A stretch of 62,053 nucleotides of DNA, filler included. It is 4 parts of 4 records of this genome, joined end to end, with 100 filler letters (N's around TTAATTAATTAA, not from the genome) between each part and the next. Parts side by side here need not be neighbours in the genome. Positions count along the whole stretch, not along the records: positions 7,609 to 32,109 come from DRR723986_5811; 3 more parts are not named here. One strand, 5' to 3'. The notes below the pieces were generated by a model. It worked only from the letters and a program-made list of their open reading frames with translations. It searched no databases and had not been told where the DNA came from. The translations under genes were made by a program, and so were the position numbers. Position 1 is the first letter of the stretch. Each line of letters opens with the position of its first letter. Shown in pieces: positions 1,676 through 20,822 of this stretch.

Positions 1676-1692
1676 CCTTAGTTTTTCTAGGG
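1676..1692. promoter_or_regulatory. Candidate LysR (GcvA-type) operator between divergent genes
   Basis: CCTTAGTTTTTCTAGGG: TAG-N5-CTA dyad just upstream of the LysR start. Confidence 0.45.
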
Positions 1693-1766
1693 CAAGAAAT
1701 AGCAAAACTGATTTGCGCTGTCCAACCCTGCCGCGCAGATTGGGTCAAACAGTAAAGGACGTGGAA

Positions 1767-3077: not shown

Positions 3078-3085
3078 ACACCACT

Positions 3086-3117
3086 AAAAAGGGGCCGCCG
3101 ATCAGGCAGCCCCTTTT
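3086..3117. terminator. Bidirectional rho-independent terminator
   Basis: AAAAAGGGGCCGCC-GATCA-GGCAGCCCCTTTT between convergent genes. Confidence 0.75.
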
Positions 3118-3165
3118 GAAGGTCAGACAGTTCCGCGCCGTGGATACAGACCCGGCTGCGGCACT

Positions 3166-3783: not shown

Positions 3784-4061
3784 GATCATTCCAGCTTTGT
3801 TAAGTTGCCGCCCAATACCATGCCCGTGCGGCAATGTCAGTGGCGATTGGTTGTTTTGGGGTCGATAATCCGGCAAGAACCCGCTGATCTCAAGGCATTG
3901 CGCAAAAATGAAAAAGAGGACGCAAAGCATCCTCTTTTTGCATTTGGTTCTCCCCGTCGGACTGGGCCGACTTATTGCCGTGACGTTACGAAAGGGGCGT
4001 GCGCGGGTCAACAGGGAAAATTGAATATTTTCCAATGCTCTCAAGCCACTACCATAGCGGG

Positions 4062-4140
4062 AAAAAGTGCCGCACCCGAAGGTGCGGCCAGTCTGACAGG
4101 GAGGATGTTCCGCCGCAAAAGGACTTTGCCAGCGGAACAA
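4062..4140 (-). ncRNA. Probable SuhB/MmgR (alpha-r8)-type small RNA
   Basis: Minus strand: 5' hairpin TGTTCCGC...GCGGAACA, unpaired TCCTCCCT, GACTGG, then terminator GCCGCACC-TTCG-GGTGCGGC + TTTTT; about 80 nt, intergenic. Confidence 0.65.
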
Positions 4141-4217
4141 TTAGACAGTGGCGCAAAAAGGTTAAGTAAGTATGCTCATTCCAAACGGACGCCCGACCGG
4201 GCCTGAGGAGTATCACA

Positions 4218-5768: not shown

Positions 5769-5776
5769 TAATTTCC

Positions 5777-6253
5777 ATGGAAAACCAAACTGTTGAAGTG
5801 ATCCTGCGCCCTGCGGAGGAAAATGACGCGCAGGGCATTTCGAATGTCTTGGCTGCCTTGAAGGCGGCAGGAAAGCGGCGCACAGCGGGGGATGCGGAGG
5901 AGGTGAAGGGCCATTACATCACCCATCCTGACCGCATCCAATGCACGGTGGCCGAAGTTGACGGGCAGGTGATCGGCTTTCAATCCTTGCGGTTGGCGAC
6001 GCTGGGCAACCCTTACGGCACACCGGAGGGGTGGGGCATCATCGGCACCCATATCCACCCCTCCGCGGCGCGTTGTGGGGTTGGCAAAAGGCTGGCTGGG
6101 CAGACGATCAAAGTGGCGCAGGTGGCGGGATTGCGACATGTGGAGGCGCGGATCGGGACGGAAAATGCAGCCGGGCTGGCGTATTATGGATCCATCGGTT
6201 TTGTCGAAAGTGATGAGGCCGGGGTGAAAGTGCTGAACCTGCCCGAGGTCTAG
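5777..6253 (+). CDS. GNAT family N-acetyltransferase
   Basis: HPSAARCGVGKRL acetyl-CoA motif A; N.AGLAYY.SIGF motif B. Confidence 0.8.
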   Translation: MENQTVEVILRPAEENDAQGISNVLAALKAAGKRRTAGDAEEVKGHYITHPDRIQCTVAEVDGQVIGFQSLRLATLGNPYGTPEGWGIIGTHIHPSAARCGVGKRLAGQTIKVAQVAGLRHVEARIGTENAAGLAYYGSIGFVESDEAGVKVLNLPEV

Positions 6254-6291
6254 GCGCAGGAGCATTGGACGGTCGGGGAAAGCGAGAATTT

Positions 6292-7140
6292 TCAAGATCT
6301 TGCGTACCGCAATAAAACCGCGCCAAGCAGGGCAGAGAAAGTTGAGAAGACCTTTATCAGATTTAACGGCTCTTTCAGAAAGAACACTCCGATCAGAAGG
6401 GCAAAGACAATGCTTGTCTCCCGCAATGCGGTGACCAATGCGATTGGGGCCTGGGTGAAGGCCCATGTCACAACAGCATAGGCGATGAAGGACGCGCCGC
6501 CACCAAGCACTAGAATGGGCAGGCCGGTTCGTGGGATTGCCCGCAGGGTTTGTGGTGATCTGGCCGCGAGATAGGCAATCATCAAGATCCCGTTGCCCAA
6601 TGAAAGCCAGCAATAGAACCCCAAGGAGGTGCCTGCGATCCGCGCACCGACGCCATCCACCAAGGAATAAGACGCAATAAACACGCCGGTCGTCAAAGCA
6701 AAGGCGGCGGCGTTTCTGTTCTGCTGGCCATCGCTTTGCCGGACCAGTGCCAGACTGATGATGCCAAGTCCAATGATCGCAATCGCAAGAAGTTCGAGCC
6801 CGTTGAGTTGAACCCCGAGAACCAGCACGGAGAAAACCGCAACGATCAATGGGGCAGAGCCGCGCGCAATCGGGTAAACCTGTGTCAGGTCGCCTGTTTT
6901 GTACGACTGGAGCAAAAACAGCTGATACCCAAAATGAAGCACAAGCCCGCCCGCTAGATATGGCAGGCTTTCGGCGGCTGGCAGCGGCACAAACGGAAGT
7001 GCCACAAGTGCAATGGGCAGATGCCCGATCACCACCGCACCCATGCTGAGCGTTTTGTCAGCTCCTCCCTTGACCAAGGCGTTCCACGCCGCATGGAGGA
7101 GGGCAGCTCCGATGACCGCGACAAAGACCAAACCGCTCAT
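6292..7140 (-). CDS. EamA/DMT family transporter
   Basis: LLHAAWNALVK, GDLTQVYPIARG, ALRETSIVFA; about 10 hydrophobic segments. Confidence 0.85.
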   Translation of the reverse strand: MSGLVFVAVIGAALLHAAWNALVKGGADKTLSMGAVVIGHLPIALVALPFVPLPAAESLPYLAGGLVLHFGYQLFLLQSYKTGDLTQVYPIARGSAPLIVAVFSVLVLGVQLNGLELLAIAIIGLGIISLALVRQSDGQQNRNAAAFALTTGVFIASYSLVDGVGARIAGTSLGFYCWLSLGNGILMIAYLAARSPQTLRAIPRTGLPILVLGGGASFIAYAVVTWAFTQAPIALVTALRETSIVFALLIGVFFLKEPLNLIKVFSTFSALLGAVLLRYARS

Positions 7141-7197
7141 TTGCAGACCTTTCGATAGGGCCGCGCCGGTCCTGGCATTGGCCGGTATCCGTCAGCC

Positions 7198-7230
7198 AAA
7201 AGAAAAGGCCCCGCAGTTTGCGGGGCCTTT
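7198..7230 (-). terminator. Rho-independent terminator after livM
   Basis: AAAGGCCCCGCA-AAC-TGCGGGGCCTTT plus T tract on minus strand. Confidence 0.8.
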
Positions 7231-7234
7231 GAGG

Positions 7235-7508
7235 TTATTTCTCAGGGATCAAACCGCGTGGGCTGAACCTGAGGACCAGGATCAGAACCAGACCCATGGT
7301 GAGCAAACGCATGTGCGCCGCGCTTTCCAGCAAGTGCGCCTTGAGCGCCGATCCTTCGGCCATGCCGGAGGTAACAAGGTTCATCAGCCACAGGCCCATC
7401 GGTTCAACCTGCACCCAAAGGAACCAGATCAGGAACCCGCCCAGAACCGCGCCAAGGTTGTTGCCCGATCCGCCAACGATCACCATCACCCAGATCAGGA
7501 AGGTAAAG
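7235..7508 (-). CDS. Branched-chain amino acid ABC permease LivM-type, C-terminal fragment (contig end)
   Basis: WVMVIVGGSGNNLGAVLG and PRGLIPEK C-terminal motifs. Confidence 0.8.
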
Positions 7509-7608
7509 NNNNNNNNNNNNNNNNNNNNNNNNNNNNNNNNNNNNNNNNNNNNTTAATTAATTAANNNNNNNNNNNNNNNNNNNNNNNNNNNNNNNNNNNN
7601 NNNNNNNN
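7509..7608. other. Artificial contig linker
   Basis: 44 N + TTAATTAATTAA + 44 N. Confidence 0.99.
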
Positions 7609-7636
7609 GGCTCGCGCTGCGCTTGGCCGGGATGAC
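7609..7636. repeat. Truncated alphaproteobacterial REP/RIME-like palindromic repeat at contig start
   Basis: Reverse complement GTCATCCCGGCCAAGCGCAGCGCGAGCC resembles GTCATCCCGG-type extragenic palindromes of Hyphomicrobiales. Confidence 0.5.
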
Positions 7637-7685
7637 GCCGGTGGGTGAAACCGGAGGCCCTGACTTCGAACCGGCCGACCTCGCT

Positions 7686-8036
7686 TTAAGCGAGTGCCGC
7701 GATGACGATGATCTCGACCTTGTATTCCGGGGCTGCCAGTTTGGCTTCACCGGTAGCGCGTGCCGGCGGGTTGGCCGGGTCGACCCAGGCGTCCCAGACC
7801 TTGTTCATCTCGGCAAAGTCCTTCATGTCGTCCATCCAGATAGTGGTCTGGAGAATGCGGCTCTTGTTGCTGCCAGCCTGCTCCAGAAGGGCATCGATGC
7901 GCTCCAGGATCGTCTGGGTCTGGTTGGTAACGGTGTCGCCTGGATTGCCGACCTGACCGGCAAGATAGACGATACCGCCGTGGATAACAGCCTGGCTCAT
8001 GCGCGGGCCAACTTCCAGCCGTTTGATGTCGGACAT
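7686..8036 (-). CDS. RidA family imine deaminase (YoaB/Rid2-like)
   Basis: RMSQAV.HGG.VYLAGQV, MNKVWDAW, PARAT, VEI motifs. Confidence 0.9.
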   Translation of the reverse strand: MSDIKRLEVGPRMSQAVIHGGIVYLAGQVGNPGDTVTNQTQTILERIDALLEQAGSNKSRILQTTIWMDDMKDFAEMNKVWDAWVDPANPPARATGEAKLAAPEYKVEIIVIAALA

Positions 8037-8072
8037 GATTGAATTCCTTCTTGTCTTGAAAGAGACGCCCGC

Positions 8073-9173
8073 TCAGAACAAGCGGGCGGGATCGAGAGCA
8101 GCCACTACCTTCTCGGGCAGTTCGCTCGGACGCTTGAGACAGAGATCCGCAACGAGCCGGGAGAGCGCTGGGGCCGTTTGTACGCCGTAGCCGCCCTGAC
8201 CGGCAAGCCAGAAAAACCCTTCCGCATCCGGTGCAAATCCAACCACAGGTGTGCGGTCTGAAACGAAGCTGCGCAGGCCTGCCCAATTGCGCTCGACGCG
8301 CGTGACGGGCATCGTCACGGCCTGCTCGAATCGGTGCAGACCTTCAGCCAGAACCATGTCATCTGCCCAGGCATCGTGCGGCTCCACCGGGTCTTCATCG
8401 GCAGGCGAAACCATGAACTTGCCGGCATCCGGCTTGGCATACCATTGCTCCGATGCGCTGGCGACGAGCGGCCATTTCGTGACATCGATACCATCCGGCG
8501 GCGGCACGATGGCCGCCGAGCGGCGCATGGGCACCAGGCCGACCTTGCGAACGCCCGCCAGACCCGCGATCTGATCCGCCCAGGCCCCGGCTGCATTGAT
8601 GAGGACCGGCGCTTCGAAGGCCCCCTTGGGCGTCTCGACACGCCACTGCCCGCCGCTTCTGAGAATGCGCTGTGCGGGCGCTTCCGTGACGAGCCGCGCC
8701 CCGGCCTTTCGTGCAAGCCGGGCAAAGCCCTGCAACAATCTGTCGACGTCGATATCTTGCGCGTCCCGCTCGATGGCAGCAGCGGCAATCGTTTCCTTGC
8801 GAAGCAGTGGAAACAGGGCAACAGCTTCTTCCGCCGTCAGGACTTCCATACCGTCGGCACCGTCCAGATAGGCCTTGAACGCGTCCAGTTCGTCCTCGGT
8901 CGCAATCAGCATTTCACCACGGGGTGACAGCAGGCTTTCCTCCGATATCCCTTCCGGGTTCTTCAGAACCGGCTCCGAAGCTGCATTCAAGGCCCGCAAC
9001 GTGGCATTACCGTAGTTGCGGATGAAGATGGCGGCGGAGCGACCGGTCGCGTGCCGGCCAAGCGCATCTTCCATTTCCAGCACGGTGACCTTTGCGTCCG
9101 GCGCAAGCCGTGCCGCAGCCCCGGTGCCGGCAATTCCACCGCCGATGATCAGAAAATCCGATGTCTCGATCAT
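8073..9173 (-). CDS. FAD-dependent D-amino acid dehydrogenase/oxidase, DauA-like
   Basis: GGGIAG Rossmann, HATGRSAA, NAAGAWAD, WAGLRSF, GQGGYGVQTAPA. Confidence 0.85.
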   Translation of the reverse strand: MIETSDFLIIGGGIAGTGAAARLAPDAKVTVLEMEDALGRHATGRSAAIFIRNYGNATLRALNAASEPVLKNPEGISEESLLSPRGEMLIATEDELDAFKAYLDGADGMEVLTAEEAVALFPLLRKETIAAAAIERDAQDIDVDRLLQGFARLARKAGARLVTEAPAQRILRSGGQWRVETPKGAFEAPVLINAAGAWADQIAGLAGVRKVGLVPMRRSAAIVPPPDGIDVTKWPLVASASEQWYAKPDAGKFMVSPADEDPVEPHDAWADDMVLAEGLHRFEQAVTMPVTRVERNWAGLRSFVSDRTPVVGFAPDAEGFFWLAGQGGYGVQTAPALSRLVADLCLKRPSELPEKVVAALDPARLF

Positions 9174-10192
9174 GCGTCCTGGAACCCTTTCAGGAAACTG
9201 GTGAGGTTCTGGCCGAGTTCTTCCGAAAGGTAACCGCCTTCCTGCACGAACAGCACCGGCAGGCCGAGCTTCGCGATGGCAGCACCAATCCGTCTGAACC
9301 CGGGTGTGGTGATGGCGAGTCCCTTGAGAGGATCTTTTTCATAAGCATCGAGCCCCAGGGCAACAACCAGAATATCGGTTCCAAAGGCCCGAATGTGGTC
9401 GAAGGCCGTTTCCAGGGTTTTCAGGTACTCGTCATCCCCGGTGCCGCGTGCCAAAGGCAGGTTGAGATTACAGCCCCGTCCCGCGCCTTCGCCGCGCTCA
9501 TGTCCGTGGCCCCAGAAGAACGGATAGAACCGCACCGGATCGGCATGTAGCGAAACGGTGAGAACGTCACCGCGCTCATAGAAGATGCCTTGCGTACCAT
9601 TGCCGTGGTGGACGTCGATGTCGAGGATCGCCGGACGCTTGCCTGCCTTCAGAAGCCTTTCGGCCGCAATGCCGGAGTTGTTGAGAAAACAGAAGCCGCC
9701 CGCCAGATCCGCAAATGCATGGTGACCGGGAGGGCGCGACAGCACATAGGCGGCCTGTTCCCCGGCCGCCATCAAGTCCGCGCCGTGGACCGCACTTTGG
9801 GCAGACCAATAGGCCGCTTCCCAGGTCCCGGCTGCGATGGGACAACTGGTATCGGCCTGATGGAACCCGGCCTGACCGACTGCGGAGCGCGGATAACTTG
9901 CCGTGCGCCGGTCCGGATGAATGTTCGGGATGACCTCGTCGGATGCGCCCTCGATCCGGCTCCAGCGTTCATGGATGGTCTGAAGAAAAACGAGGTATTC
10001 CGCAGAGTGGAGAGCCGCAATCGGGCCGAGGCCATGATCTTCCGGCGCTTCGAAGCGGCACCCTGCCGCCTTGGCACCTTCGGTCAGGACCTCGATGCGC
10101 TTCGGCTGTTCCGGATTGGCCAGCCTGGTGCCGTTCGCCATGAAATGCTTGGGATCGTGCATCCATTGGCGGTCGTCAAAAATGGCTTTCAT
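9170..10192 (-). CDS. Histone deacetylase family amidohydrolase (acetylpolyamine amidohydrolase-like)
   Basis: RPPGHHA, GGFCFLNN, DIDVHHGNGTQ, LGLD, QEGGY. Confidence 0.92.
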   Translation of the reverse strand: MKAIFDDRQWMHDPKHFMANGTRLANPEQPKRIEVLTEGAKAAGCRFEAPEDHGLGPIAALHSAEYLVFLQTIHERWSRIEGASDEVIPNIHPDRRTASYPRSAVGQAGFHQADTSCPIAAGTWEAAYWSAQSAVHGADLMAAGEQAAYVLSRPPGHHAFADLAGGFCFLNNSGIAAERLLKAGKRPAILDIDVHHGNGTQGIFYERGDVLTVSLHADPVRFYPFFWGHGHERGEGAGRGCNLNLPLARGTGDDEYLKTLETAFDHIRAFGTDILVVALGLDAYEKDPLKGLAITTPGFRRIGAAIAKLGLPVLFVQEGGYLSEELGQNLTSFLKGFQDA

Positions 10193-10677
10193 GAGCGGTC
10201 CCTCAATTTGTCGAGTGCCGGTGCGCGCAGATCGAAGACGGTTTCGCCTTCCCGAGGCGCAAAACCGAGCCGTTCATAGAAACGGCGTGCATCCGGATTG
10301 TCGTGATAAACGGCGAGCTTCAGAAAGATCGGCGTCCAGCTATCAGGCGCAAGATCCAGACTGGCGGCAAGCAGGCGCTGGCCCAGCCCTTCTCCGCGCG
10401 CTTCTCCATCGACCCAAAGATCGGAAACATAGAGACCGGTGCCACCACGCGTCGTCGAAAAGACAGGCGAGGCCTGCAATACACCGAGCGTGCGGTCGTC
10501 AGACGGCCGGATCGCTAGCAGCGCGAAGAAGGCGGGGGTTTCCGAGAAACCGTGACGGATCACATCATCAAGACTGGCGACATGAGTGTCGCCCATATCG
10601 GCCGAAAGCTGGAGCAGCGCTGCGTGAAGCCTTTCGGCATCAGCCCGCTCCGCCCGCCTGATCGTTATGTTGCTCAT
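10189..10677 (-). CDS. GNAT acetyltransferase (SSAT/diamine acetyltransferase-like)
   Basis: LYVSDLWV..EARGEGLG, N.DARRFYERLGF; 4-nt overlap with the deacetylase gene. Confidence 0.85.
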   Translation of the reverse strand: MSNITIRRAERADAERLHAALLQLSADMGDTHVASLDDVIRHGFSETPAFFALLAIRPSDDRTLGVLQASPVFSTTRGGTGLYVSDLWVDGEARGEGLGQRLLAASLDLAPDSWTPIFLKLAVYHDNPDARRFYERLGFAPREGETVFDLRAPALDKLRDRS

Positions 10678-10679
10678 GA

Positions 10680-11609
10680 TCAGAAGGCCGTCTCGCTGGC
10701 CCCTTTGAGGCCCAGCATCTGCCGGGCTTCTTCCGGTGTTGCGACCGTTCGCCCGAGTTCCTCGACAATCTTGCGGATCTTGGTGACCTGCTCAGCGTTG
10801 GAGCGGGCCAGCTCACCCTTGGCGATGTAGAGATTGTCCTCCAGCCCGACACGGACGTGCCCGCCCATGCTGGCAGCAATGGTGGCGAAAGGGATCTGCT
10901 GTCGGCCCGCAGCAAGAACGGAGAAGATATAGTCGTCGCCGAAAAGCTTGTCCGCCATCCGCTTCATGTGCTGCAGGTTTTCCGGGTCCGCACCGATACC
11001 GCCCAGAACGCCGAAGACGAACTGGATAAAGTACGGCGGCTTGACGAGCCCCCGGTCGGCGAAGTGGCGCAGCATGTAAAGATGCCCGACGTCGTAGCAT
11101 TCGAACTCGAAACGCGCACCGCGCTGCTGGCCCATCTGTATCAGCACGAATTCGATATCCCGCGGTGTGTTCTTGAAGACGAGATCATCCGTTCCGCGCA
11201 GGAAAGGCTGCTCCCAGTCATGCACCCACGCGTCGTAACGGTCGGCCAGCGGATAGAGCGCGAAATTCATTGTGCCCATGTTGAGTGAGCACATTTCCGG
11301 CTCTGCCTTCAGCGGACCGGCAAGCCTGTCCTCCAGGCTCATGATCGCGCTGCCACCGGTGGACAGGTTGAGCACCGCGCCGCAACCCGCCTTGATCTCC
11401 GGAAGGAAGGCCATGAAGTCGGCCTCCCGCGCCGACGGCTGGCCGGTTTCCGGATTTCGGGCATGAAGATGCAGGATTGCGGCGCCCGCCTCGGCAGCGC
11501 CTATCGCCTGGCCTGCAATCTCGGCAGGCGTCACCGGCAAGTGAGGTGACATGGTGGGTGTATGAATGGAGCCCGTGACGGCACAGGTGATGATGATCTT
11601 GTCTGTCAT
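10680..11609 (-). CDS. Beta-keto acid cleavage enzyme (BKACE/Kce, DUF849)
   Basis: IITCAVTG, HLHAR Zn ligands, STGG, PEMCSLNMG, FECYD, GGHVRVGLEDN, ATPEEAR. Confidence 0.93.
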   Translation of the reverse strand: MTDKIIITCAVTGSIHTPTMSPHLPVTPAEIAGQAIGAAEAGAAILHLHARNPETGQPSAREADFMAFLPEIKAGCGAVLNLSTGGSAIMSLEDRLAGPLKAEPEMCSLNMGTMNFALYPLADRYDAWVHDWEQPFLRGTDDLVFKNTPRDIEFVLIQMGQQRGARFEFECYDVGHLYMLRHFADRGLVKPPYFIQFVFGVLGGIGADPENLQHMKRMADKLFGDDYIFSVLAAGRQQIPFATIAASMGGHVRVGLEDNLYIAKGELARSNAEQVTKIRKIVEELGRTVATPEEARQMLGLKGASETAF

Positions 11610-11619
11610 GTCTTGAATG

Positions 11620-12975
11620 TCAGCTGGCTCTGGCCTGTTGCTGCGAAATCCTGTCGAGAAACTGGCGGAGAGAAAGGTCGAGACCTTCGATGATCTCGGC
11701 TACATGATCCGGTGTCGAGATCATGGGGGGCGCAATCAGGAAGTGGTCGCCGCTGTAGCCGCCCCGTGTCCGGCGGGAATAGATGATAAGGCCGTTCTCA
11801 TAAGCAATATCGACCAGTTCGTTGAAGGCGTTCAGTTCCTTTGCGAGCGGTCTCAGGCTTGCACGGTCCTCGACCAGTTCGAAGGCCAGCAACAGCCCTT
11901 CGCCGCGTACGTCGCCGATGATCGAATAGCGGTCCATCAGCTTCTTCAGTTCGCTCTTCAGGAGCGCCCCGGTCTCGGCCGCGTTCTGGCACAGGTTTTC
12001 CCGCTCGATCTCCTCCAGCACCGCCAGACCGGCAGAGCAGGCAAGCGGATTGCCGGCATATGTGAAACCATGCAGGAAACCGCCATTGTCGAGCACGTTG
12101 GTGACGATGTCCTTGTGCGCAATCATGGCGCCCAGAGGCGCATAACCAGCAGCAAAGCCTTTGGAGATCACCAGAATATCCGGATCGACATTCCAGTGTT
12201 CACCGGCGAAGAACTTTCCGGTCCTCCCGCCACCGGTCATGACCTCGTCATGGATCAGCAGGACGCCGTAACGCGTGCAGATCTCGCGAATGCGTTGCAT
12301 GTACCCCTTCGGCGGCACGAGCGCGCCGGTGGAGGCGCCACCGATCGGCTCGACAATAAAGGCCAGGATTGTTTCCGGGCCTTCGGACAGGATCTTTGCC
12401 TCCAGCATGTCGGCGTAGTGTCTACCCGTTGCCTCGTCGTCCGGATCCAACCCGTCGAGATAGGCGCGCGGTGCCGGGATCTTCGGCATCGGCCGCATCA
12501 TGGGGTCGAACGGCGCGGTAAGGGGTGCATAGCCTGTCAGGGCCAGAGCGCCAAGCGTGCAGCCGTGATAGCTCGGTTCGCGCGAGATGATCTTGTAACG
12601 CTGCGCCTGGCCGATCGCGATGGCGTTCTGGCGGGCCAGCTTGATGGCGCTCTCCACCGCTTCCGACCCACCGGAAACGAAGAAGACCTTTTCCAGTCCC
12701 TCGGGTGCCAGTGCGGCGGTCCTGGCGGCAAGCAGCTCCGCAGGCTCTGTCTCGAAATGGAGGCGGTAACCGAAGGTGGACTTGTCCATCTGCTTGCGCA
12801 TTGCCTCCAGCACGCGCGGGTTGGAATGGCCGATGTTGCAGACCATCGCCCCGGACGAACCGTCGAGATAGCGCTTGCCGTCGACGTCCCACATGTAGAC
12901 GCCGCGCGCCTGGTCCAGAACAGGCCGGCGCTGACGAGACTGATAGAACAGATGAGAGGTTTGCGGACGGCTCAT
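11620..12975 (-). CDS. Class III PLP aminotransferase (omega/beta-amino acid)
   Basis: SGGSEAVE, SYHG, IVEPIGG, DEVMTG.GRTG, ISKG, HGFTYAGNP. Confidence 0.92.
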   Translation of the reverse strand: MSRPQTSHLFYQSRQRRPVLDQARGVYMWDVDGKRYLDGSSGAMVCNIGHSNPRVLEAMRKQMDKSTFGYRLHFETEPAELLAARTAALAPEGLEKVFFVSGGSEAVESAIKLARQNAIAIGQAQRYKIISREPSYHGCTLGALALTGYAPLTAPFDPMMRPMPKIPAPRAYLDGLDPDDEATGRHYADMLEAKILSEGPETILAFIVEPIGGASTGALVPPKGYMQRIREICTRYGVLLIHDEVMTGGGRTGKFFAGEHWNVDPDILVISKGFAAGYAPLGAMIAHKDIVTNVLDNGGFLHGFTYAGNPLACSAGLAVLEEIERENLCQNAAETGALLKSELKKLMDRYSIIGDVRGEGLLLAFELVEDRASLRPLAKELNAFNELVDIAYENGLIIYSRRTRGGYSGDHFLIAPPMISTPDHVAEIIEGLDLSLRQFLDRISQQQARAS

Positions 12976-14057
12976 GAAGCAGCTCCAGGCAGGGCTGCGC
13001 AGTCGCGCGGACGGAAGCGAACGGAGACGTCCGAGCCTTCCTCGAAAGGGTGCTGATCGATCATGTTGATCACCTGAAGTTGCTGGTCGCCGACACGAAC
13101 GAAATACCGTGCCGCCTGACCCTGGTAGTCCACCGCCTCGACCTTGCCGTCGAGCGCGATGCGATCATCCGCCGGAGCGGATTTTTCCGCCAGCAGAAGT
13201 TTTTCAGCCCGGATAACAAGCTGTGCAGGACCGGCCTGTGAAAGATTGGGGGCCTTTTCCCTCGGCACGTTGATCTTGCCGAAGTAAGGCAGTTCAAGGG
13301 ACAGCTCCTGCCCGTTCACCGCCTGGCACGTCGCTGGCAGAATGTTGGAGATGCCCAGGAAGCGCGAAACGAACTCGCTTGCAGGCGTGTTGTAAACCTC
13401 CTGCGGCGTGCCGATCTGCTCCACCCGTCCGTTGGACATCACCACGATGCGGTCGGACATGGCGAGCGCTTCGGACTGGTCATGGGTAACGAAGACGGTG
13501 GTGATGCCGATCTGGTGCTGGATGCGTTTCAGCTCGACACGCATGTCCTCGCGCAGGTTGGCGTCGAGTGCGGACAGCGGTTCGTCCAGAAGCAGCACGT
13601 CCGGCTCGATGACGATGGCCCGCGCCAGCGCGATACGCTGCTGCTGACCACCGGAAAGCTGCTTGGGATAACGGTCGCTGACATGGGGCAGCTGAACCAG
13701 TTCCAGCGCATCGCGCACTTTCTTTTCGGCATCCGCCTTCGGGATATCGCGGTATTTCAGGCCAAAAGCCACATTTTCGGCGATCGTCTTGTGCGGAAAG
13801 AGCGCGTAGTTCTGGAACACGAGACCAAGGTTTCGCCTGTGGATCGGCACGTCGTTGATGCGTTGACCCTTGATGGTGATGTCGCCTTCGGAAGGGTCGA
13901 TGAGACCGGCGATCATCCTGAGGGTGGTCGTCTTGCCACATCCGGAAGGGCCGAGCAGCGTTACGAAGCTTCCGTCCGGGATGTCCATGCTCATCCGGTG
14001 AACGGCGGTAAAGCCACCGAACTTCTTGACGATATTGTTAAGGGAAACCGCGCTCAC
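12972..14057 (-). CDS. PotA-type ABC transporter ATP-binding protein
   Basis: GPSGCGKT, LSGGQQQR, LLDEP, TOBE C-terminus; GTG start with GGAG RBS. Confidence 0.93.
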   Translation of the reverse strand: MSAVSLNNIVKKFGGFTAVHRMSMDIPDGSFVTLLGPSGCGKTTTLRMIAGLIDPSEGDITIKGQRINDVPIHRRNLGLVFQNYALFPHKTIAENVAFGLKYRDIPKADAEKKVRDALELVQLPHVSDRYPKQLSGGQQQRIALARAIVIEPDVLLLDEPLSALDANLREDMRVELKRIQHQIGITTVFVTHDQSEALAMSDRIVVMSNGRVEQIGTPQEVYNTPASEFVSRFLGISNILPATCQAVNGQELSLELPYFGKINVPREKAPNLSQAGPAQLVIRAEKLLLAEKSAPADDRIALDGKVEAVDYQGQAARYFVRVGDQQLQVINMIDQHPFEEGSDVSVRFRPRDCAALPGAAS

Positions 14058-14087
14058 GCAAATTCTCCAAGTCCTGGGGAGAAGACG

Positions 14088-14114
14088 ACCTTCCGGCAGC
14101 AACTGCCGGAAGGT
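14088..14114. terminator. Intercistronic stem-loop downstream of the SBP gene
   Basis: ACCTTCCGGCAG-CAA-CTGCCGGAAGGT perfect 12-bp stem with no U tract (mRNA stabiliser or attenuator). Confidence 0.6.
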
Positions 14115-14143
14115 GCTGGGTCAGTGATGGGGCCGTACCTGGC

Positions 14144-15283
14144 TCAGTAACCCTTCTGGATCCGCCCGAACATCTTGGACCAATCCTGTTCGTGGCTGTT
14201 CCAGTATTCCGGATTGGCGAAGGTCAAACCGTCGAGCGTCCCTGTCGGATCGAACGCCGGAAGGGTCGGGATCTTCTTGCCGAGTTCAACCTTTGTCGGG
14301 TCAAGCGCCGGTGGGTAGTTCTGGCCTTCTGCGACCGCGATCGAGGTTTCCGGTGCCAGCATGAAGTTCAGAAGTTCCTCGCAAGCTTCCATGGGCGAGC
14401 CCTTGATCACGAACAGGCATTCCTGCCAGCCGAAACCGTTGGGCGGATCGATATAGCCGATGTCATGGCCCTGCTCCTGAAGGGCGTAGATCCGGCCGGA
14501 CCAGCCCTCGGTAACGTAGATTTCCTCTTCGGCCAGAAGGCTCATGAGTTCCGCGCCGGACTGCCAGTATTTCAACAGCAGATCGCGGTTGGTGCGCACT
14601 GCCTGCCAGACGGCATCCATATCCGTGGCGTTGTTCGGATCCTGGTCGGTCTGCAGCGATGCGTACCAGATGCGGGTGCGCCAGTCGGACCAGCCGCCGA
14701 TCTTGCCCTTGTAGGCTTCGTCGATCAGGAGCTTTGCACCCTTTTCCTTGGCTTCGTCGTCGGAGATGTATTTCCGGTTATAGGCAATGCCTGTGGTGCC
14801 GTAGTCATAAGGCACGCAGGACAGCTTGCCGTCGGTGACACCGCGGAAGACGTCGGTGAGTTTCGGGATCACGTATTTCAGGTTCGGGATGTTGTCCTCG
14901 TTGAGCGCCGAGTTCAGCCCGAGATTGACATAGCGTGCGTAGTCGAAGACGCCTGACAGGTGGGCGATATTGTATTCGCCTTCCTGGCTGGCCTTGACGC
15001 GCGACAGATATTCATCTCCGCCGCCGAACGTTCCATCGACAACCTTGATGCCGGTCTTTTCGGTGTAGGGATCGAAGGCATATTTGCGGAAGGCTTCCGA
15101 GACGACCCCGCCCCAGCCGTCGAAGCGGACTTCCTCCGTCGCAGCCATGGCATGGCGGGCAAAGGGTGTCTGCACACCGTAGGCGAGACCGGCTGCCCCG
15201 ATCAGGCCAAGGAACTTGCGGCGGTCGAGATCACCGTTGAGATAGCGTTCGCGCAGACGCTCATAGCGTTTGGTATTGTCCAT
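14144..15283 (-). CDS. PotD/PotF-type substrate-binding protein with Tat signal
   Basis: DRRKFLG twin-arginine motif, FDGWGG, VPYDYGTTGIAYN, WSGR. Confidence 0.88.
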   Translation of the reverse strand: MDNTKRYERLRERYLNGDLDRRKFLGLIGAAGLAYGVQTPFARHAMAATEEVRFDGWGGVVSEAFRKYAFDPYTEKTGIKVVDGTFGGGDEYLSRVKASQEGEYNIAHLSGVFDYARYVNLGLNSALNEDNIPNLKYVIPKLTDVFRGVTDGKLSCVPYDYGTTGIAYNRKYISDDEAKEKGAKLLIDEAYKGKIGGWSDWRTRIWYASLQTDQDPNNATDMDAVWQAVRTNRDLLLKYWQSGAELMSLLAEEEIYVTEGWSGRIYALQEQGHDIGYIDPPNGFGWQECLFVIKGSPMEACEELLNFMLAPETSIAVAEGQNYPPALDPTKVELGKKIPTLPAFDPTGTLDGLTFANPEYWNSHEQDWSKMFGRIQKGY

Positions 15284-15335
15284 CTTGTTTTCCACTCTGG
15301 TTCTTGTGTCGGTTTCTTGCTTTGATCGCGCGGTT

Positions 15336-16121
15336 CTAACCGCCGCGCTGCATGGCCATCCGCCGGGCGATTGCCAGCCCGAGAAGCGGCAGGCCGACGG
15401 TCAGGAAAATCATCACGGTGCCGAGCGCGTTGATCTCCGGGGAGATGGAATTGCGCAGCATGGCAAAGATCTGGGTGGGCACGGTTTCGACGCCGCCCGG
15501 CTTCCAGAACAAGGTGCCGGTGATATCGTCGAAGCTGATGGTGAACGCGAAGAGCATACCCGCGAAGACCGCCGGGGCCAGCAGTGGCAGCGTGATCTGG
15601 AAGAAGGCTTGCACGGGACTTGCGCCAAGGCTGAGTGCGGCTTCCTCGTAGTCGCGGCGGATGCCGACAAGGCGAGCCTGCACCACCAGGATGACAAAGG
15701 GCAGCGTGAAGATGACGTGCCCCATCAGGAGCAGGAAGAAGCTCTTGTTGATCGACAGGAAATTCAGGAACAGCAACAAGGCGACCGCCAGCACCACCTC
15801 CGGCACCAGGATCGGCGCAATCAGGAGGGTGGAGATCAGGTTGCGGCCGGGCACCTCGTAGCGCACCAGGGCAAGACTTGCCAGAACGCCAAGTGTCGTG
15901 GAAATCAGTGCGGTCAGGGCACCAAGGACAATCGAGGTCTGGAACGCCCGCAGGATGGCGTCGTTTCCGGCCAGTTCGACGAACCAGCGGAACGAGAAGC
16001 CGGTCATAGGAAAGCTGCCGAACTGGCTGGCGTTGAAGCTGAGCAGAACCACCACCGCGACCGGCAGGAACATGAACAGATAGACCAGCAGCGTGTAGGC
16101 CCGGATCAGTTGCCACCCCAT
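15336..16121 (-). CDS. PotC-type ABC permease
   Basis: EEAALSLGAS EAA loop, FTISFDD, SPEINAL. Confidence 0.92.
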   Translation of the reverse strand: MGWQLIRAYTLLVYLFMFLPVAVVVLLSFNASQFGSFPMTGFSFRWFVELAGNDAILRAFQTSIVLGALTALISTTLGVLASLALVRYEVPGRNLISTLLIAPILVPEVVLAVALLLFLNFLSINKSFFLLLMGHVIFTLPFVILVVQARLVGIRRDYEEAALSLGASPVQAFFQITLPLLAPAVFAGMLFAFTISFDDITGTLFWKPGGVETVPTQIFAMLRNSISPEINALGTVMIFLTVGLPLLGLAIARRMAMQRGG

Positions 16122-16987
16122 CAGCCAAGCCCCTTCATCAGTTGGCCCATGCCGAGATAGTGGTTGTAGATCAGCACCAGGGCGCCGAGGACGGCGAGCA
16201 GCATGAGCGAGAGCGCAGAGCCGAGCGGCCAGTTAAGCTGTGTGATGATCGCCTCGAAAACGAGATTGGCGAACATGGCGTCCGTCGGACCACCCAGAAC
16301 CAGCGGTGTGATGTAGGTGCCCGCACTCAGCACGAAACAGAGCAGGCCTCCTGCGGCGAGCCCCGGCAGGGACAGCGGCAAGGTGACTTCCCGGAATGCC
16401 TGCCAGCGGGTGGAGCCGAGGGAACAGGCCGCGTCCTCCAGCGAAACATCGATCCCTTCCAGCGCCACATAGACGTTCAACACCATGAAGGGCAGCAGGA
16501 AATGCACGAGGCCCAGGATCACGGTCGGCTCGTTGTAGAGCATCTGAACCGGTTCGGAGACGATGCCGAGGTTGAGCAGGGCCCAGTTGACCGCACCCGA
16601 TACACCCAGGATGTTGATCCAGGACATGGTCCGGATGATGTAGCTGATCCAGAACGGCAGCATCAGCAACAGCAGCAGCAAGGCCTTGTTGCCTCGTGAA
16701 CGGGCAATGAAATAAGCCGCAGGATAACCCATGACGGCGCAGGCAAATGTGGTGATGGCGGCAATCCGCAACGTACCGAGCAGGATGTCCCGATAGAAGG
16801 GATCGGTCAGCGCCTCGTTCCAGTTGTCCAGGTAAAAGCCCGCCTGGTCAGCGCCCGTGGCCGTGCGCAGCCAGAACGAATAGACGACAATAAAAACAAG
16901 CGGCACGAAAAGCAGCAGCCCCACTGCTGTGAGCGCAGGGGAAAGGAGTATCCATGGCTGTCGTTTTTCCCGCGCCTCGACGCTCAT
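16121..16987 (-). CDS. PotB-type ABC permease
   Basis: LPFWISYIIR, LPFMVL, EDAACSLG EAA loop, NWPLGSA. Confidence 0.92.
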   Translation of the reverse strand: MSVEAREKRQPWILLSPALTAVGLLLFVPLVFIVVYSFWLRTATGADQAGFYLDNWNEALTDPFYRDILLGTLRIAAITTFACAVMGYPAAYFIARSRGNKALLLLLLMLPFWISYIIRTMSWINILGVSGAVNWALLNLGIVSEPVQMLYNEPTVILGLVHFLLPFMVLNVYVALEGIDVSLEDAACSLGSTRWQAFREVTLPLSLPGLAAGGLLCFVLSAGTYITPLVLGGPTDAMFANLVFEAIITQLNWPLGSALSLMLLAVLGALVLIYNHYLGMGQLMKGLG

Positions 16988-17060
16988 GCGCTCAAACCCT
17001 GCCAGATGCCTTGTCAAAATTGCTTGACTTCAGCGTCGCAGGCAGGCCTTCATTGATCAA

Positions 17061-17097
17061 ATAGATAATGAAAATTATAACTATAGATCTAATCAAT
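17061..17097. promoter_or_regulatory. LysR binding region (T-N11-A dyad overlapping the LysR start)
   Basis: ATAGAT-CTA-ATCAAT at 17083-17097 and a second ATAGAT 22 bp away in an AT-rich divergent promoter. Confidence 0.55.
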
Positions 17098-18064
17098 GGC
17101 TGATGGATTACGCCCGATACAGGCGGAACGGCTTGCCCGCGAACTGGACTGGAACCTGCTGAGAACCTTCATCGTCCTGGCCCAGTCCGGAAGTGTGACG
17201 CGGGCGGCAGACAGACTGCGCCTCAAGCAGCCCACCGTTTCCAGCGCACTGAAGCGGCTGGAGGACCGGTTGGGACGCAAGCTCATCAATCGCAAGCCGG
17301 GTCAGTTCGAGCTGACGGAAGCCGGCCAATTGCTTTTGAAGGAAGCCATCGAGATCCAGGGTTCCATTCTGAGGCTCGGAACCCTGATGCGTGACGTCAC
17401 CGACGAGATCCGCGGCCACGTCGAAATCGCCATGGCCAGTCACGTGGTTTCGCCGCTCTATGACGACACCCTGCGCGAGTTTCACGAACGGCACCCGGCC
17501 GCAACACTCACCATCAACGTTTCGGCCAGCAAGGACGCACTGGAAGCCGTCACGTCCCGCCGGGCTTCGCTCGCCGTCTGCCTGGTGCGCGAACGCAATC
17601 CAAAGCTTGAGTACCTGCGCCTTTTCCGGGAGTTTTTCGGCCTCTTCTGCGGTCCGCCTCACCCGCTTTACGGCAAGACCAACCTGACAAAGGCCGATCT
17701 TGCCGGTCAGTCCGCCGTCAGCTTCGTGACCGACCGGCTGGAAGACGCCCTTCGTCCGGTGACGCTAATGCGGGCGGAAGCGGATCTCGAAGACCGGATC
17801 GTCGGCACATCGGCCAACCTGGAAGAAGTCCGACGCATGATCATTGCCGGACTGGGCATCGGCCCCTTGCCTGTCCACGTTGCCAAGCGGGATATTCGAG
17901 AGGGTCTTTTGTGGCAACTCCCACCCTATGACGCGCTGCCGGAGATCGACGTTCATGTGGTCTGGAACCCGAAGGCGAAACTGAACCGCGCCGAACAGGC
18001 TCTTCTGGACATGCTGCTGGAAAAGATAAGGCTGACGCCGATAGAGGAGCGGACCTATCGCTGA
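17096..18064 (+). CDS. LysR-family transcriptional regulator of the divergent operon
   Basis: LDWNLLRTF...GSVTRAA.RL.LKQPTVSSALKRLE HTH. Confidence 0.93.
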   Translation: MADGLRPIQAERLARELDWNLLRTFIVLAQSGSVTRAADRLRLKQPTVSSALKRLEDRLGRKLINRKPGQFELTEAGQLLLKEAIEIQGSILRLGTLMRDVTDEIRGHVEIAMASHVVSPLYDDTLREFHERHPAATLTINVSASKDALEAVTSRRASLAVCLVRERNPKLEYLRLFREFFGLFCGPPHPLYGKTNLTKADLAGQSAVSFVTDRLEDALRPVTLMRAEADLEDRIVGTSANLEEVRRMIIAGLGIGPLPVHVAKRDIREGLLWQLPPYDALPEIDVHVVWNPKAKLNRAEQALLDMLLEKIRLTPIEERTYR

Positions 18065-18226
18065 CACATATCGCGGAGCATTGGCCTGCCGGCTTCTTTA
18101 CCAACCCGAGCGACCAATACGGGAAACCCGGCAGCGGCCCGTTGCATTCCCCCGCTGACGTTGTAAAACTTTCAGGACGCTACGAAAATTGGCGATCAAC
18201 GCCGTCCAGGTTGAAGGGGTAGGAAG

Positions 18227-19309
18227 ATGAATGGTGTGCGGTTCGCCTGGAAAATGCTCTTCCTTGCGCTGGTGACAGTGGTCCTTGTTCAGTCGCCTGC
18301 CAATGCATCGGAAGAATTCTTTGAAGGCGGCTGGACCCTGCAACGGGATGCTTCTTCCCTGCGCTTCCAGTCGGTCAAGAACCTGACCATCGTTGAATCC
18401 AGCTCTTTCGCGGAATTTGAAGGCGGCATTGACGATACCGGCAACGCCAGCGTCCGCGTCTTTCTTGACTCGATCGATACGAAAATCGACCTTAGAAACG
18501 TGCGCATGCGGTTTCTCTTCTTCGAAACGTTCGAGTTCCCTGAAGCCGTCATCTCGACGAAAATTGATGCGTCAGCCCTCGCTGATCTTCCGACCGTCAA
18601 ACGCAAGACGATCCCGCTTGCCTTCAATCTCGACCTTCACGGCGTCTCAAAACCGTTCGAGGCCAATGTTACGGTGACCTATCTGAGCGAAGACCTGGTT
18701 GCCGTTTCGAGCACCGCGCCGGTGTCTGTCGCAGCTTCCGACTTCGCCCTCGGTGGCGGTATCAAGAAGCTCGAGGAAGCCGCCGGCGTCGTCATCGTGC
18801 CATCGGCAACGGTCTCCTTCGATTTCGTCTTCGCCCGCAAATCGGGCGAAACGGACGAGGACGATGCCGACGACCAGACCCAGCAGGCGGCCGCTTCTCA
18901 GCCAGCTGCAAGCACCGCGCTTGAACCGGAAGGCAACCTGGACAACGAGGCTTGCACCGGCCGGTTCGAGATCCTGTCCCGCACGGACAACATTTACTTT
19001 CCAAGCGGCAGTTCGCAGCTTGATCCGCGAAGCCAGCCACTCCTGAACAGCCTCGTTGACATCATCATGAGATGCCCGGAGCTGACCATTGAAGTCGGAG
19101 GACATACCGACAGTGATGGCAGCGATACATCAAACCTGGCTCTGTCCGAACGCCGGGCGGGCGCGGTCAAGCAGTATCTTGTCTCCAAGAACGTTCCCGA
19201 CAGCAGGATCAGGAGTGTCGGGTATGGCGAAAGCCGTCCCGTAGCTCCGAACACCTCCGCGGAAGGAAAGCAACGCAACCGGCGGATAGAGTTTGTCGTT
19301 GTCGAATAG
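18227..19309 (+). CDS. Secreted YceI-like domain fused to OmpA/MotB C-terminal peptidoglycan-binding domain
   Basis: Signal peptide; WTL...SS.RF, IDTKIDLRN.RMR, LDLHGV (YceI); GHTD, NLALSERRA, GYGE.RP, NRRIEF (OmpA_C). Confidence 0.85.
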   Translation: MNGVRFAWKMLFLALVTVVLVQSPANASEEFFEGGWTLQRDASSLRFQSVKNLTIVESSSFAEFEGGIDDTGNASVRVFLDSIDTKIDLRNVRMRFLFFETFEFPEAVISTKIDASALADLPTVKRKTIPLAFNLDLHGVSKPFEANVTVTYLSEDLVAVSSTAPVSVAASDFALGGGIKKLEEAAGVVIVPSATVSFDFVFARKSGETDEDDADDQTQQAAASQPAASTALEPEGNLDNEACTGRFEILSRTDNIYFPSGSSQLDPRSQPLLNSLVDIIMRCPELTIEVGGHTDSDGSDTSNLALSERRAGAVKQYLVSKNVPDSRIRSVGYGESRPVAPNTSAEGKQRNRRIEFVVVE

Positions 19310-19316
19310 GTCCAAC

Positions 19317-20822
19317 ATGCACCGCTTTGCAATCGCAATCCTCCTGGCACTGACAGTGACCATTGGCGCGCTGTCTGAGAGGGCTCACGCGGAACCGCGG
19401 CTGGCTCTGGTTGTCGGCAATGGCGCTTACACGACCGTGACGCCGCTGGACAATCCGGTGAACGACGCAAGCCTGATGGCCGACGCGCTGCGCAAGGTCG
19501 GCTTCGAGGTAACCCTCGTCACCGATTCCAGCCAGAACGAGATGATCACGGCGATTTCGCAATTCGGCAGCAAGTTGCGGGCCGCGGGCGAGGATGCAAC
19601 AGGGCTGTTCTATTATGCCGGCCACGGCGTGCAATCGTTCGGTGCAAACTTTCTCCTTCCAGTCGATATCGAACTTCAGGACGCTGCCGACCTCAGCCTG
19701 GTCGGTGTCCCTGCGCAGGCCGTTCTGCGGCAGATGTTCTCGGCACGGAACCGGACCAACATCGTCATTCTGGATGCCTGCCGAAACAATCCGTTCGTTT
19801 CCATCCCGGACCTCAGCGACAACGGTCTGGCAGAAATGAAGGCCCCCAGAGGTACTTTCCTCTCCTATTCCACCGCACCGGGCGACATCGCGCTCGATGG
19901 TATCGGCGGCAACAGCCCCTTCACCGAAGCGCTGGCCCGGCACATGCCGACACCCGGCATGCCCGTCGAAACCCTTTTCAAGGCAGTGCGGGTCGATGTT
20001 CTGAAGGAGACCGGCAACCAGCAGACCCCGTGGGATACATCCTCCCTCACCGTTGATTTCCAGTTTGTCCCGGCCAAGGCTCCCTCTGCCGAGGAAGTCG
20101 AATTGCGCCAGATCTGGGACACGGTGAAACTCAGCAAGGACCCCTTGCAGGTTCTCCTGTTCCTGCGCGCGCACCCGGACAGCCGATACTCCGCAGAAGC
20201 CAGGGAACTCCTGACGGCTCTGATGGAGAAGGAAACGCAGCCCACCGCGCAGGCGACACCTGCCCCACAACAGGAATCCGAACCAGCCACGCCCCAGACA
20301 AGCGAGCGTGACATGATCGAAACAGCGCGCCGAGAGGGAACCGCAAGCGCCTATCAAACCTATCTGGACGCATATCCGAACGGTGCCTTTGCCGAACTCG
20401 CACGCCTGGAGCTGCAAACGATCGTCAACAAGGAGCAGAGCACGGATCCGGTCGCCAGTCAGCCGCAGCAGGAAGACGCGCCAGCCATCGCCGAGCAAGG
20501 CTCACCTGCCGCCGAGCCGGGGGAACCGTCAGCCGTCATAGCATTCAACGCCCCCCTTGCCATGGGAGAGCCGGATATCGCCACCCGAAGCATTTCGGAG
20601 CTGATCACCGGATCGCCGAAGTTCCCGCCGATCGAGGGCCTGCCGGAAGCGGTCTGGAAGGACAAGACTTGTGCCGCCTGTCATCAATGGGAGCAGGCGA
20701 ACCTGTGCGATCAGGCCAAGACCTATGTCGCAGACAAGTCCAGAACCATCGAGAAACAGCACCCCTACGGCGGCACTTTCAAGAATGCGTTGCGGCTTTG
20801 GGCCGAACAGGGGTGTCCGTAA
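19317..20822 (+). CDS. Secreted caspase-family (peptidase C14) protein with helical repeats and a C-terminal Cys-rich CxxCH domain
   Basis: Signal peptide; RLALVVGN..Y, L.NP.NDA, YYAGHG and ILDACR catalytic dyad, NSPFT, QQTPW; CAACH at 20670-20684. Confidence 0.88.
   Translation: MHRFAIAILLALTVTIGALSERAHAEPRLALVVGNGAYTTVTPLDNPVNDASLMADALRKVGFEVTLVTDSSQNEMITAISQFGSKLRAAGEDATGLFYYAGHGVQSFGANFLLPVDIELQDAADLSLVGVPAQAVLRQMFSARNRTNIVILDACRNNPFVSIPDLSDNGLAEMKAPRGTFLSYSTAPGDIALDGIGGNSPFTEALARHMPTPGMPVETLFKAVRVDVLKETGNQQTPWDTSSLTVDFQFVPAKAPSAEEVELRQIWDTVKLSKDPLQVLLFLRAHPDSRYSAEARELLTALMEKETQPTAQATPAPQQESEPATPQTSERDMIETARREGTASAYQTYLDAYPNGAFAELARLELQTIVNKEQSTDPVASQPQQEDAPAIAEQGSPAAEPGEPSAVIAFNAPLAMGEPDIATRSISELITGSPKFPPIEGLPEAVWKDKTCAACHQWEQANLCDQAKTYVADKSRTIEKQHPYGGTFKNALRLWAEQGCP

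Follow-up and report, generated by a model that had tools for sequence, protein, structure and literature searches.

The window analysed here is a 62,053-nucleotide stretch of DNA from a marine Roseibium bacterium, in which ten minus-strand genes at 7686-17017 lie divergently from a plus-strand LysR gene at 17096-18064. We propose, with moderate confidence, that this locus is an operon under LysR control for the breakdown of an imported amino acid of the beta type that resembles lysine, likeliest beta-lysine and/or N6-acetyl-beta-lysine, the substrate being assigned from chemistry and by analogy. The underlying pathway logic, in which a compound is imported, protected by acetylation, transaminated, cleaved by an enzyme of the BKACE family and then deprotected, is in our judgement well supported. 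Gene families, gene order, their conservation and an altered ligand site in the importer's binding protein were observed directly. The genes, from the importer end of the operon downward, followed by the regulator and the control region, are:

16121..17017, minus strand: PotB-like ABC permease (PF00528; NF007044 PotB, 194 bits, below its cut-off of 348)
15336..16121, minus strand: PotC-like ABC permease (PF00528; NF007047 PotC, 206.7 bits, below its cut-off of 326)
14144..15295, minus strand: substrate-binding protein of the PotD/PotF fold, predicted to be exported by twin-arginine translocation (Tat) (PF13416; NF007048 PotD, 41.7 bits against a cut-off of 582)
12972..14102, minus strand: PotA-type ABC ATPase with a TOBE domain (PF00005, PF08402; TIGR01187, 364.3 bits, above its cut-off of 355.6)
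11620..12975, minus strand: class III (omega/beta-type) aminotransferase (PF00202, 344.3 bits)
10680..11609, minus strand: BKACE (PF05853, 369.5 bits, cut-off 24.8; NF053538, 504 bits, cut-off 430)
10189..10677, minus strand: GNAT acetyltransferase (PF00583)
9170..10192, minus strand: HDAC-fold amidohydrolase of the acetylpolyamine amidohydrolase type (PF00850, 232.9 bits)
8073..9173, minus strand: DauA-like, DAO-type dehydrogenase dependent on flavin adenine dinucleotide (FAD) (PDB 3nyc, E 5e-89)
7686..8036, minus strand: Rid-family imine deaminase (PF01042, 98.8 bits; TIGR00004, 66.8 bits, below its cut-off of 106)
17096..18064, plus strand: LysR-family regulator (PF00126, 74.4 bits; PF03466, 109.3 bits)
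17018..17095, no strand assigned: 78-base divergent control region with an imperfect 24-nucleotide dyad (arms 17051-17074 and 17075-17098, 71% complementary)

The coordinates and families that an earlier note on this DNA had given for all eleven genes were borne out by the gene coordinates and by Pfam and NCBIfam profiles. Adjacent genes are packed closely, with four overlaps of 4, 4, 4 and 1 bases and remaining gaps of 2-41 bases.

In the scheme that we propose, in which we infer every substrate and every reaction, the Tat-exported binding protein and the PotABC-type importer would bring the compound into the cell, and the GNAT enzyme would acetylate its distal N6 amine where that amine is free. 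The class III aminotransferase would turn the 3-amino group of N6-acetyl-beta-lysine into a ketone, giving 6-acetamido-3-oxohexanoate; the BKACE would pass the acyl part of this product to acetyl-coenzyme A (acetyl-CoA), giving 4-acetamidobutyryl-CoA and acetoacetate; and the HDAC-type amidohydrolase would strip off the acetyl group, so that 4-aminobutyrate (GABA) or its CoA ester could enter central metabolism. Acetylation would be needed because a free C6 amine should attack the C3 ketone and close a five-membered cyclic imine, and since, by this chemical reasoning, only 3,6- or 3,7-diamino acids would need such protection, the scheme points to beta-lysine. N6-acetyl-beta-lysine is an osmolyte of methanogens and some halophiles. 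No KamA-family lysine 2,3-aminomutase was found in our nearest comparison genome, G001 (6.7 Mb, 99% complete), where six candidates were scored and control genomes responded, so any beta-lysine used would have to be scavenged, consistent with an operon that encodes an importer.

The earlier note had made co-occurrence of the four enzymes in other genomes a test of its proposal, and the genes do travel together. We took the best 80 loci encoding a BKACE relative (61-97% identity) and searched them with all eleven window proteins, with counts that rest on tblastn, and we called a locus linked when at least one of aminotransferase, GNAT and deacetylase lay beside the BKACE gene. By this definition 52 of the 80 loci are linked and 28 have no partner, and the series aminotransferase-BKACE-GNAT-deacetylase is complete and in the window's order in 32 of the 80. 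The aminotransferase lies directly upstream of the BKACE gene in 44 of the 75 loci with enough upstream DNA, GNAT comes after it in 41 of 80, the deacetylase comes after it in 47 of the 77 that could be assessed, and most linked loci also have a LysR relative upstream, on the other strand. At a BKACE identity of at least 69%, every locus is linked (43/43, 29 of them with all four genes), as against 9 of 37 below that value; the top matches come from Roseibium aggregatum IAM 12614 (97% identical) and a Stappia strain. Partial sets also occur: seven loci lack GNAT and keep the aminotransferase and deacetylase, two have the aminotransferase alone (L034, L038) and two the deacetylase alone (L050, L052). 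Because the gene order recurs across several alphaproteobacterial orders, with a few gammaproteobacterial metagenome-assembled genomes besides, the arrangement is more than chance.

Two further views of the same question gave a similar picture. On a quick maximum-likelihood IQ-TREE tree of 80 BKACE rows, from which L054 was left out for a stop codon inside its BKACE match, the linked BKACEs group together: the linkage label changes only twice, a figure reached in none of 500 shuffles, and 27 unlinked rows form one clade (SH-aLRT 97). Apart from the best-80 list, an even sample of 401 alphaproteobacterial genomes contained 79 with a BKACE relative at E ≤1e-100, one of which (G241) was left out of further use, and six with a relative of at least 71% identity. 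Besides G001, the five sampled genomes whose BKACE reaches at least 72% all have the LysR gene, a Pot-type importer, the aminotransferase, the deacetylase and the DauA-like gene, and three of the five have GNAT. The aminotransferase adjoins the BKACE gene in 12 of the 20 sampled stretches examined around the best matches, and aminotransferase, BKACE and deacetylase are found together in about 7 of the 401 genomes (the six at 71% or more and G271). The gene set is real, conserved and rare, and rhizobial and Roseobacter-group genomes are among those that carry it.

Other BKACE contexts came to light in the same survey. A sister clade in Azospirillum and relatives (L056-L058, L061, L063, L065, L066 and L074) has a conserved context of its own, with a sigma-54 activator, a 3-hydroxyacyl-CoA-dehydrogenase-like gene, BKACE, a short-chain dehydrogenase and a Peripla_BP_6 binding protein, a different BKACE pathway. 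In three unlinked loci (L055, L062 and L078), two CoA-transferase subunits (PF01144) directly follow the BKACE gene and would activate the released acetoacetate. A BKACE-GNAT-deacetylase trio without the aminotransferase adjoins an M19 dipeptidase in both L042 and L047 (about 5600-12400), and in L047 it also adjoins a TetR/BetI regulator, an MttB-family methyltransferase and an FMN/FAD oxidoreductase; these contexts hint at a link with quaternary-amine metabolism. Contig C1 of G001 itself carries about five more BKACE paralogues beside the operon copy, at 26-47% identity and with several of the matches in two pieces.

The BKACE at the centre of the operon matches its family over its full length and passes both curated cut-offs, PF05853 and NF053538. 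Among solved structures it comes closest to 3e02 (E 5e-123), 3e49 and the Paracoccus denitrificans enzyme BKACE15 (8RIO, E 4e-110). A re-analysis of the family, in its accessible part, describes seven groups, of which G1 takes hydrophobic and non-charged polar substrates, and counts 3E49, 3E02 and 3LOT among its modelling templates (PMC4922564); that these templates belong with G1 is our own reading of that part of the paper and not a statement made there. On that reading, the subgroup placement that the earlier note had recommended as a check falls, by its three closest solved relatives, in the neutral-substrate group, which 6-acetamido-3-oxohexanoate, with its neutral polar tail, would fit. 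BKACE15 (PDB 8RIO/8RIP/9HNF), as far as the accessible text of its structural description goes, accepts neutral beta-keto acids, has an unknown physiological role and lies in a gene context interpreted as aromatic degradation (PMC11961710), and the same partial texts give neutral C5-C6 beta-keto acids as substrates of BKACE relatives (PMC11961710; PMC4922564). The window's BKACE is a close relative of BKACE15 and of the enzymes covered by NF053538 ('3,5-dioxohexanoate:acetyl-CoA acetone transferase') and differs from them in belonging to a branch tied to aminotransferase, GNAT and deacetylase. With Kce of lysine fermentation it shares the BKACE fold (PF05853; 2y7d, E 1e-46) and the predicted acyl transfer to acetyl-CoA with release of acetoacetate. 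Unlike Kce, its beta-keto acid would come from a transaminase rather than from an NAD-dependent 3,5-diaminohexanoate dehydrogenase, there are no aminomutases here, and the protein's 253.8 bits with the Kce model NF052387 fall short of the cut-off of 382, which places it outside the Kce family. We describe the operon as a catabolic route built around a BKACE, with acetyl protection followed by deprotection; its central enzyme belongs to the BKACE family and to NF053538 and not to Kce.

The two genes downstream of BKACE would supply protection and deprotection. The best solved relatives of the GNAT protein are weak matches, a thialysine N-acetyltransferase (12jc, E 6e-9, residues 4-158) and diamine acetyltransferase 2 (2bei, E 1.7e-6, residues 4-140), enzymes that acetylate the distal amine of lysine analogues and diamines. 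The GNAT gene also has a third-position G+C content of 0.63, against 0.69-0.77 in its neighbours, and it is by far the least conserved of the set (33-92% identity, against 57-96% for the deacetylase).

For the deacetylase, the nearest solved relatives are acetylpolyamine amidohydrolases (3men, 9gkz and 3q9b; E 1e-88 to 3e-84). In the accessible part of a 2024 survey of bacterial deacylases, MrApaH and PsApaH fall in cluster 4, whose features include RPPGHH and EGGY, a PIS motif and Glu106, the last forming a salt bridge in MrApaH with the distal nitrogen of acetylspermidine or acetylspermine (PMC11532494). The window enzyme shares with MrApaH (3q9b) and PsApaH (9gkz) their overall similarity and the RPPGHH and EGGY motifs, which are kept in 47 of 47 orthologues. 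It differs from them in having Val105 in place of MrApaH Glu106, a position that is hydrophobic in 46 of the 47 orthologues, and PLK in place of PIS, with P-(F/L)-x in the orthologues; it thus lacks both the PIS motif and an acidic residue or histidine at position 106. With its catalytic motifs kept and Glu106 gone, the protein should be an active acetyl-amide hydrolase for slender substrates that does not select long polyamines, and candidate substrates are 4-acetamidobutyryl-CoA, 4-acetamidobutyrate and N6-acetyl-beta-lysine. We also considered the lysine of PLK, at the entrance, as an anchor for a carboxylate or CoA and ruled it out, as lysine stands there in only 17 of the 47 orthologues.

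The importer's binding protein also bears on the likely substrate. As the earlier note had predicted, it opens with a twin-arginine motif (DRRKFLG) whose RR pair recurs in 29 of 29 orthologues. We aligned the protein to Escherichia coli PotD (chain 8y5h_E) and then across these 29 orthologues, using PotD ligand residues that we take to include four acidic ones holding the polyamine nitrogens (Glu36, Asp168, Glu171 and Asp257); the numbering is supported by the expected residue types that these positions give in chain 8y5h_E. The fold and the aromatic box are common to both proteins: PotD Trp34, Trp229, Trp255 and Tyr293 correspond to Trp61, Trp265, Trp290 and Tyr327, each invariant in the 29 orthologues, and Ser83 is also kept. 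The window protein differs from PotD/PotF in its Tat signal and in its charged residues: two of the four acids are retained (Asp168 as Asp204, and Asp257 as Glu292, the latter invariant), Glu171 has become Arg208 in all 29 orthologues, Thr35-Glu36 has become an invariant Gly62-Gly63, and there is an additional invariant Arg268. With half of the acidic residues gone and a score far under the PotD cut-off, the protein falls outside PotD/PotF. An aromatic box gripping methylenes, two acids and two arginines would suit long-chain amino acids more than putrescine or spermidine, so the ligand site argues against a plain polyamine binder and against a polyamine-only reading of the operon.

Variant loci point the same way. 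Many Roseobacter-type and rhizobial loci carry, in place of the Pot-type importer, a polar amino-acid ABC system (SBP_bac_3, two permeases and an ATPase) whose binding protein is closest to glutamine-, ancestral Gln/Arg- and Lys/Arg/Orn-type binders (6h30, 4zv1 and 3vv5; E 4e-48 to 9e-42). From this swapped importer and the altered ligand site of the window's binding protein, we take the predicted substrate to be an amino acid and not a polyamine. The aminotransferase-BKACE pair is also nearly always accompanied by some amide hydrolase, which is of the HDAC type in most loci. Others are an M20 peptidase (Thalassospira, L098 and L102), a DMFA2-like amidase (L050, L052, L072 and L101), an FmdA/AmdA acetamidase (L034) and a creatininase-family protein (L021 and L038); in L034, L038, L101, L098 and L102 such an amidase is present and the HDAC-type gene is missing, and several of these amidases also occur alongside an HDAC-type gene. 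Because amidase families swap in the manner of non-orthologous replacement of a single step, N-deacylation seems to be part of the pathway, suggesting that amide hydrolysis is intrinsic to it. The seven loci that keep the deacetylase without GNAT suggest in turn that some lineages may import a compound that is already acetylated.

Two accessory genes end the operon. The DauA-like protein keeps Tyr53, Glu87, Arg222, Tyr249, Arg305 and Gly332 of DauA, residues that we take to bind the alpha-carboxylate and the cationic side chain, and has Ile for His48; its similarity and these six binding residues would place it, by sequence alone, with DauA, the FAD-dependent D-arginine dehydrogenase. The Rid protein has a PPARAT motif with the conserved arginine that presumably marks active imine deaminases of this family. 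Among the 52 linked loci, a DauA-like gene is found in 22 and a Rid gene in 16. As a guess, the pair may admit a second isomer, such as D-lysine, D-arginine or the other beta-lysine enantiomer. A role in recycling the amino acceptor was set aside because fold-type-I transaminases yield L-amino acids and DauA acts on D-amino acids.

A reference point for the whole scheme is the aerobic L-beta-lysine pathway of Pseudomonas B4, which was reportedly worked out in the Barker laboratory in about 1979-81 and is said to comprise EC 2.6.1.65, a 3-keto-6-acetamidohexanoate cleavage enzyme and EC 3.5.1.51/3.5.1.63. The earlier note had mapped the four adjacent genes at 9170-12975 one-to-one onto the steps of this pathway, and the families do match: N6-acetylation corresponds to GNAT, transamination at C3 to the class III aminotransferase, acetyl-CoA-dependent cleavage to BKACE and deacetylation to the HDAC-type enzyme, so that all four predicted activities are represented side by side. 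The operon differs from the Pseudomonas pathway in that the relatives of its transaminase are pyruvate-type, its deacetylase has no evident thioesterase part, its hosts are Alphaproteobacteria and two extra genes (DauA-like and Rid) are attached. Since the B4 pathway has no sequences, the operon cannot be assigned to it as a member. Our literature search found no gene assignment for these steps, with the NetSyn Table S1 of a relevant preprint, which lay outside that search, as a place where this context may be described. More tentatively, and with somewhat less confidence than we attach to the substrate, we suggest that the operon holds the long-missing genes of the aerobic beta-lysine pathway (EC 2.6.1.65, the 3-keto-6-acetamidohexanoate cleavage enzyme and EC 3.5.1.51), used by marine and soil Alphaproteobacteria on N6-acetyl-beta-lysine, with the GNAT-less loci specialised for the acetylated form and the DauA-like/Rid pair admitting a second lysine isomer.

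A number of observations weigh against assigning the operon to beta-lysine. Some concern the enzymes. The nearest solved relatives of the aminotransferase, namely 3i4j, 6io1, omega-transaminases and putrescine/polyamine:pyruvate transaminases, are pyruvate-type, and the EC 2.6.1.65 enzyme of Pseudomonas is said to use 2-oxoglutarate; the acceptor of the window's enzyme is not reliably readable from sequence. The NCBIfam name of the BKACE's own family speaks of 3,5-dioxohexanoate, and we found no record of BKACE relatives assayed on 6-acetamido-3-oxohexanoate in a search that did not extend to the family's original substrate screen. Among the seven NCBIfam matches of the GNAT protein (E ≤0.001), none is a model for a beta-lysine acetyltransferase of the AblB type. 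The conserved ligand residues of the DauA-like protein suggest a D-alpha-amino acid, and both it and Rid are accessory genes without a place in the four-step scheme. For this reason the earlier note's description of the cluster as complete does not hold; nor does the operon contain a thioesterase, a CoA-transferase, a GABA transaminase or an acetoacetate-activating gene, so that it codes neither for hydrolysis of the thioester nor for any use of GABA or acetoacetate. Other observations concern distribution: one locus (L016) lacks the deacetylase, another (L064) has no partner and yet sits inside the linked clade, and Pseudomonas is named in none of the 80 locus record titles.

The alternative that survives best, which we consider unlikely and still well within reach, keeps the same protect-transaminate-cleave-deprotect scheme and changes the substrate to another diamino or N-acylated beta-amino acid, the candidates including beta-homolysine, 3,5-diaminohexanoate and N-acyl beta-amino acids derived from natural products or osmolytes. 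All the comparative evidence backs the scheme and not an exact carbon skeleton, and the variety of amidases (HDAC, M20, DMFA2-like, FmdA and creatininase-like) could mean that acyl groups or skeletons differ between lineages. Against this, protection of a distal amine should be needed only where it can close a five- or six-membered ring on the 3-keto group, which would confine the substrate to C6 or C7 3,omega-diamino acids; to our knowledge, beta-lysine is the only widespread compound of that kind, and its pathway has the same order of steps.

An improbable alternative is that the operon is a mosaic of independent modules serving several pathways under one promoter: an aminotransferase-BKACE module for a simple beta-amino acid, a GNAT-deacetylase module for something else and a DauA-Rid module for D-arginine or D-lysine. 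Modules of this kind can be seen in the five loci with upstream room that hold BKACE, GNAT and deacetylase without the aminotransferase (L041, L042, L047, L048 and L053), which also count against our own proposal, and in the aminotransferase-BKACE pairs that have neither GNAT nor HDAC in L034, L038, L101 and L103-L105; DauA and Rid, moreover, each occur in under half of the linked loci. A mosaic is hard to reconcile with the constant order of the four genes, whose stop and start codons overlap, across 32 loci drawn from several orders, or with the gain of another amidase by HDAC-less loci, as expected of one pathway undergoing non-orthologous replacement. Slightly less probable again is an operon for polyamine or acetylpolyamine utilisation, with a PotABCD-type importer, SSAT-like and SpuC-like enzymes, an acetylpolyamine amidohydrolase and a BKACE handling a side product: the ATPase does pass the cut-off of the polyamine PotA subfamily model (TIGR01187), the deacetylase is nearest to acetylpolyamine amidohydrolases, the transaminase resembles the putrescine/polyamine:pyruvate type and GNAT resembles diamine acetyltransferases, but the other genes are linked to BKACE while polyamine breakdown gives no beta-keto acid, profile searches found no aldehyde dehydrogenase in the operon, the binding protein has Arg at Glu171 and Gly at Glu36 and misses the PotD cut-off, some loci use a polar amino-acid importer and the deacetylase is without Glu106.

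The limits of the operon follow from the structure of the window, which is a pseudo-molecule of at least four draft contigs joined by linkers (44 N, TTAATTAATTAA, 44 N) at 7509-7608, 32110-32209 and 56514-56613; because contigs are concatenated in this way, gene neighbourhoods that span the three linkers are not real. The first linker lies 78 bases past the Rid stop codon, and bases 1-7508 are therefore not the operon's neighbours. G001, whose operon proteins are 98-100% identical to those of the window, aligns only from base 7609 on, and since opposite-strand genes come after Rid in that genome, Rid is the operon's last gene. A hairpin at 7204-7230 and an 84-codon frame at 7235-7489 were considered as the operon end and ruled out, as the contig joint separates both from Rid. 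That minus-strand frame shows a strong signal of coding and weakly matches PF02653 (branched-chain amino-acid permease C-terminus, E 0.019); cut by the contig end and followed by the hairpin, which has a 12-bp stem, it belongs to the end of a transporter gene unrelated to the operon.

At the other end of the operon, the dyad at 17051-17098 is a candidate LysR site by inference alone, and no match to a sigma-70 consensus was found within the control region at 17018-17095. Assembled contigs from RNA libraries of related strains (4 runs from 4 studies, one contig 32 kb long) cover 30 of 30 bins of 7610-18300 at 90-99% likeness; as DNA carry-over is possible, we set them aside as evidence of transcription and draw from them no claim on transcription or on the operon end. 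Beside the LysR gene, a YceI-OmpA fusion (18227-19309) overlaps the start of a 509-residue caspase-domain (Peptidase_C14) protein (19293-20822), and relatives of this pair recur in the closest Roseibium and Stappia loci.

If the proposal is right, it would provide sequences for three or four activities that have had EC numbers or descriptions and no genes for more than 40 years. It would also say what one branch of the BKACE family does in the cell; for relatives, the accessible parts of the 2025 structural paper (PMC11961710) and of a 2026 preprint version describe the in vivo function as unknown or still to be discovered. Because the operon is compact and present in culturable strains, such as R. 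aggregatum IAM 12614, the idea is directly testable. More broadly, the operon would be a clear case of acetyl protection and deprotection in catabolism, would show which organisms can consume beta-lysine-type osmolytes in sea and soil, and would reveal a food link across domains, in which the N6-acetyl-beta-lysine of methanogens feeds Alphaproteobacteria.

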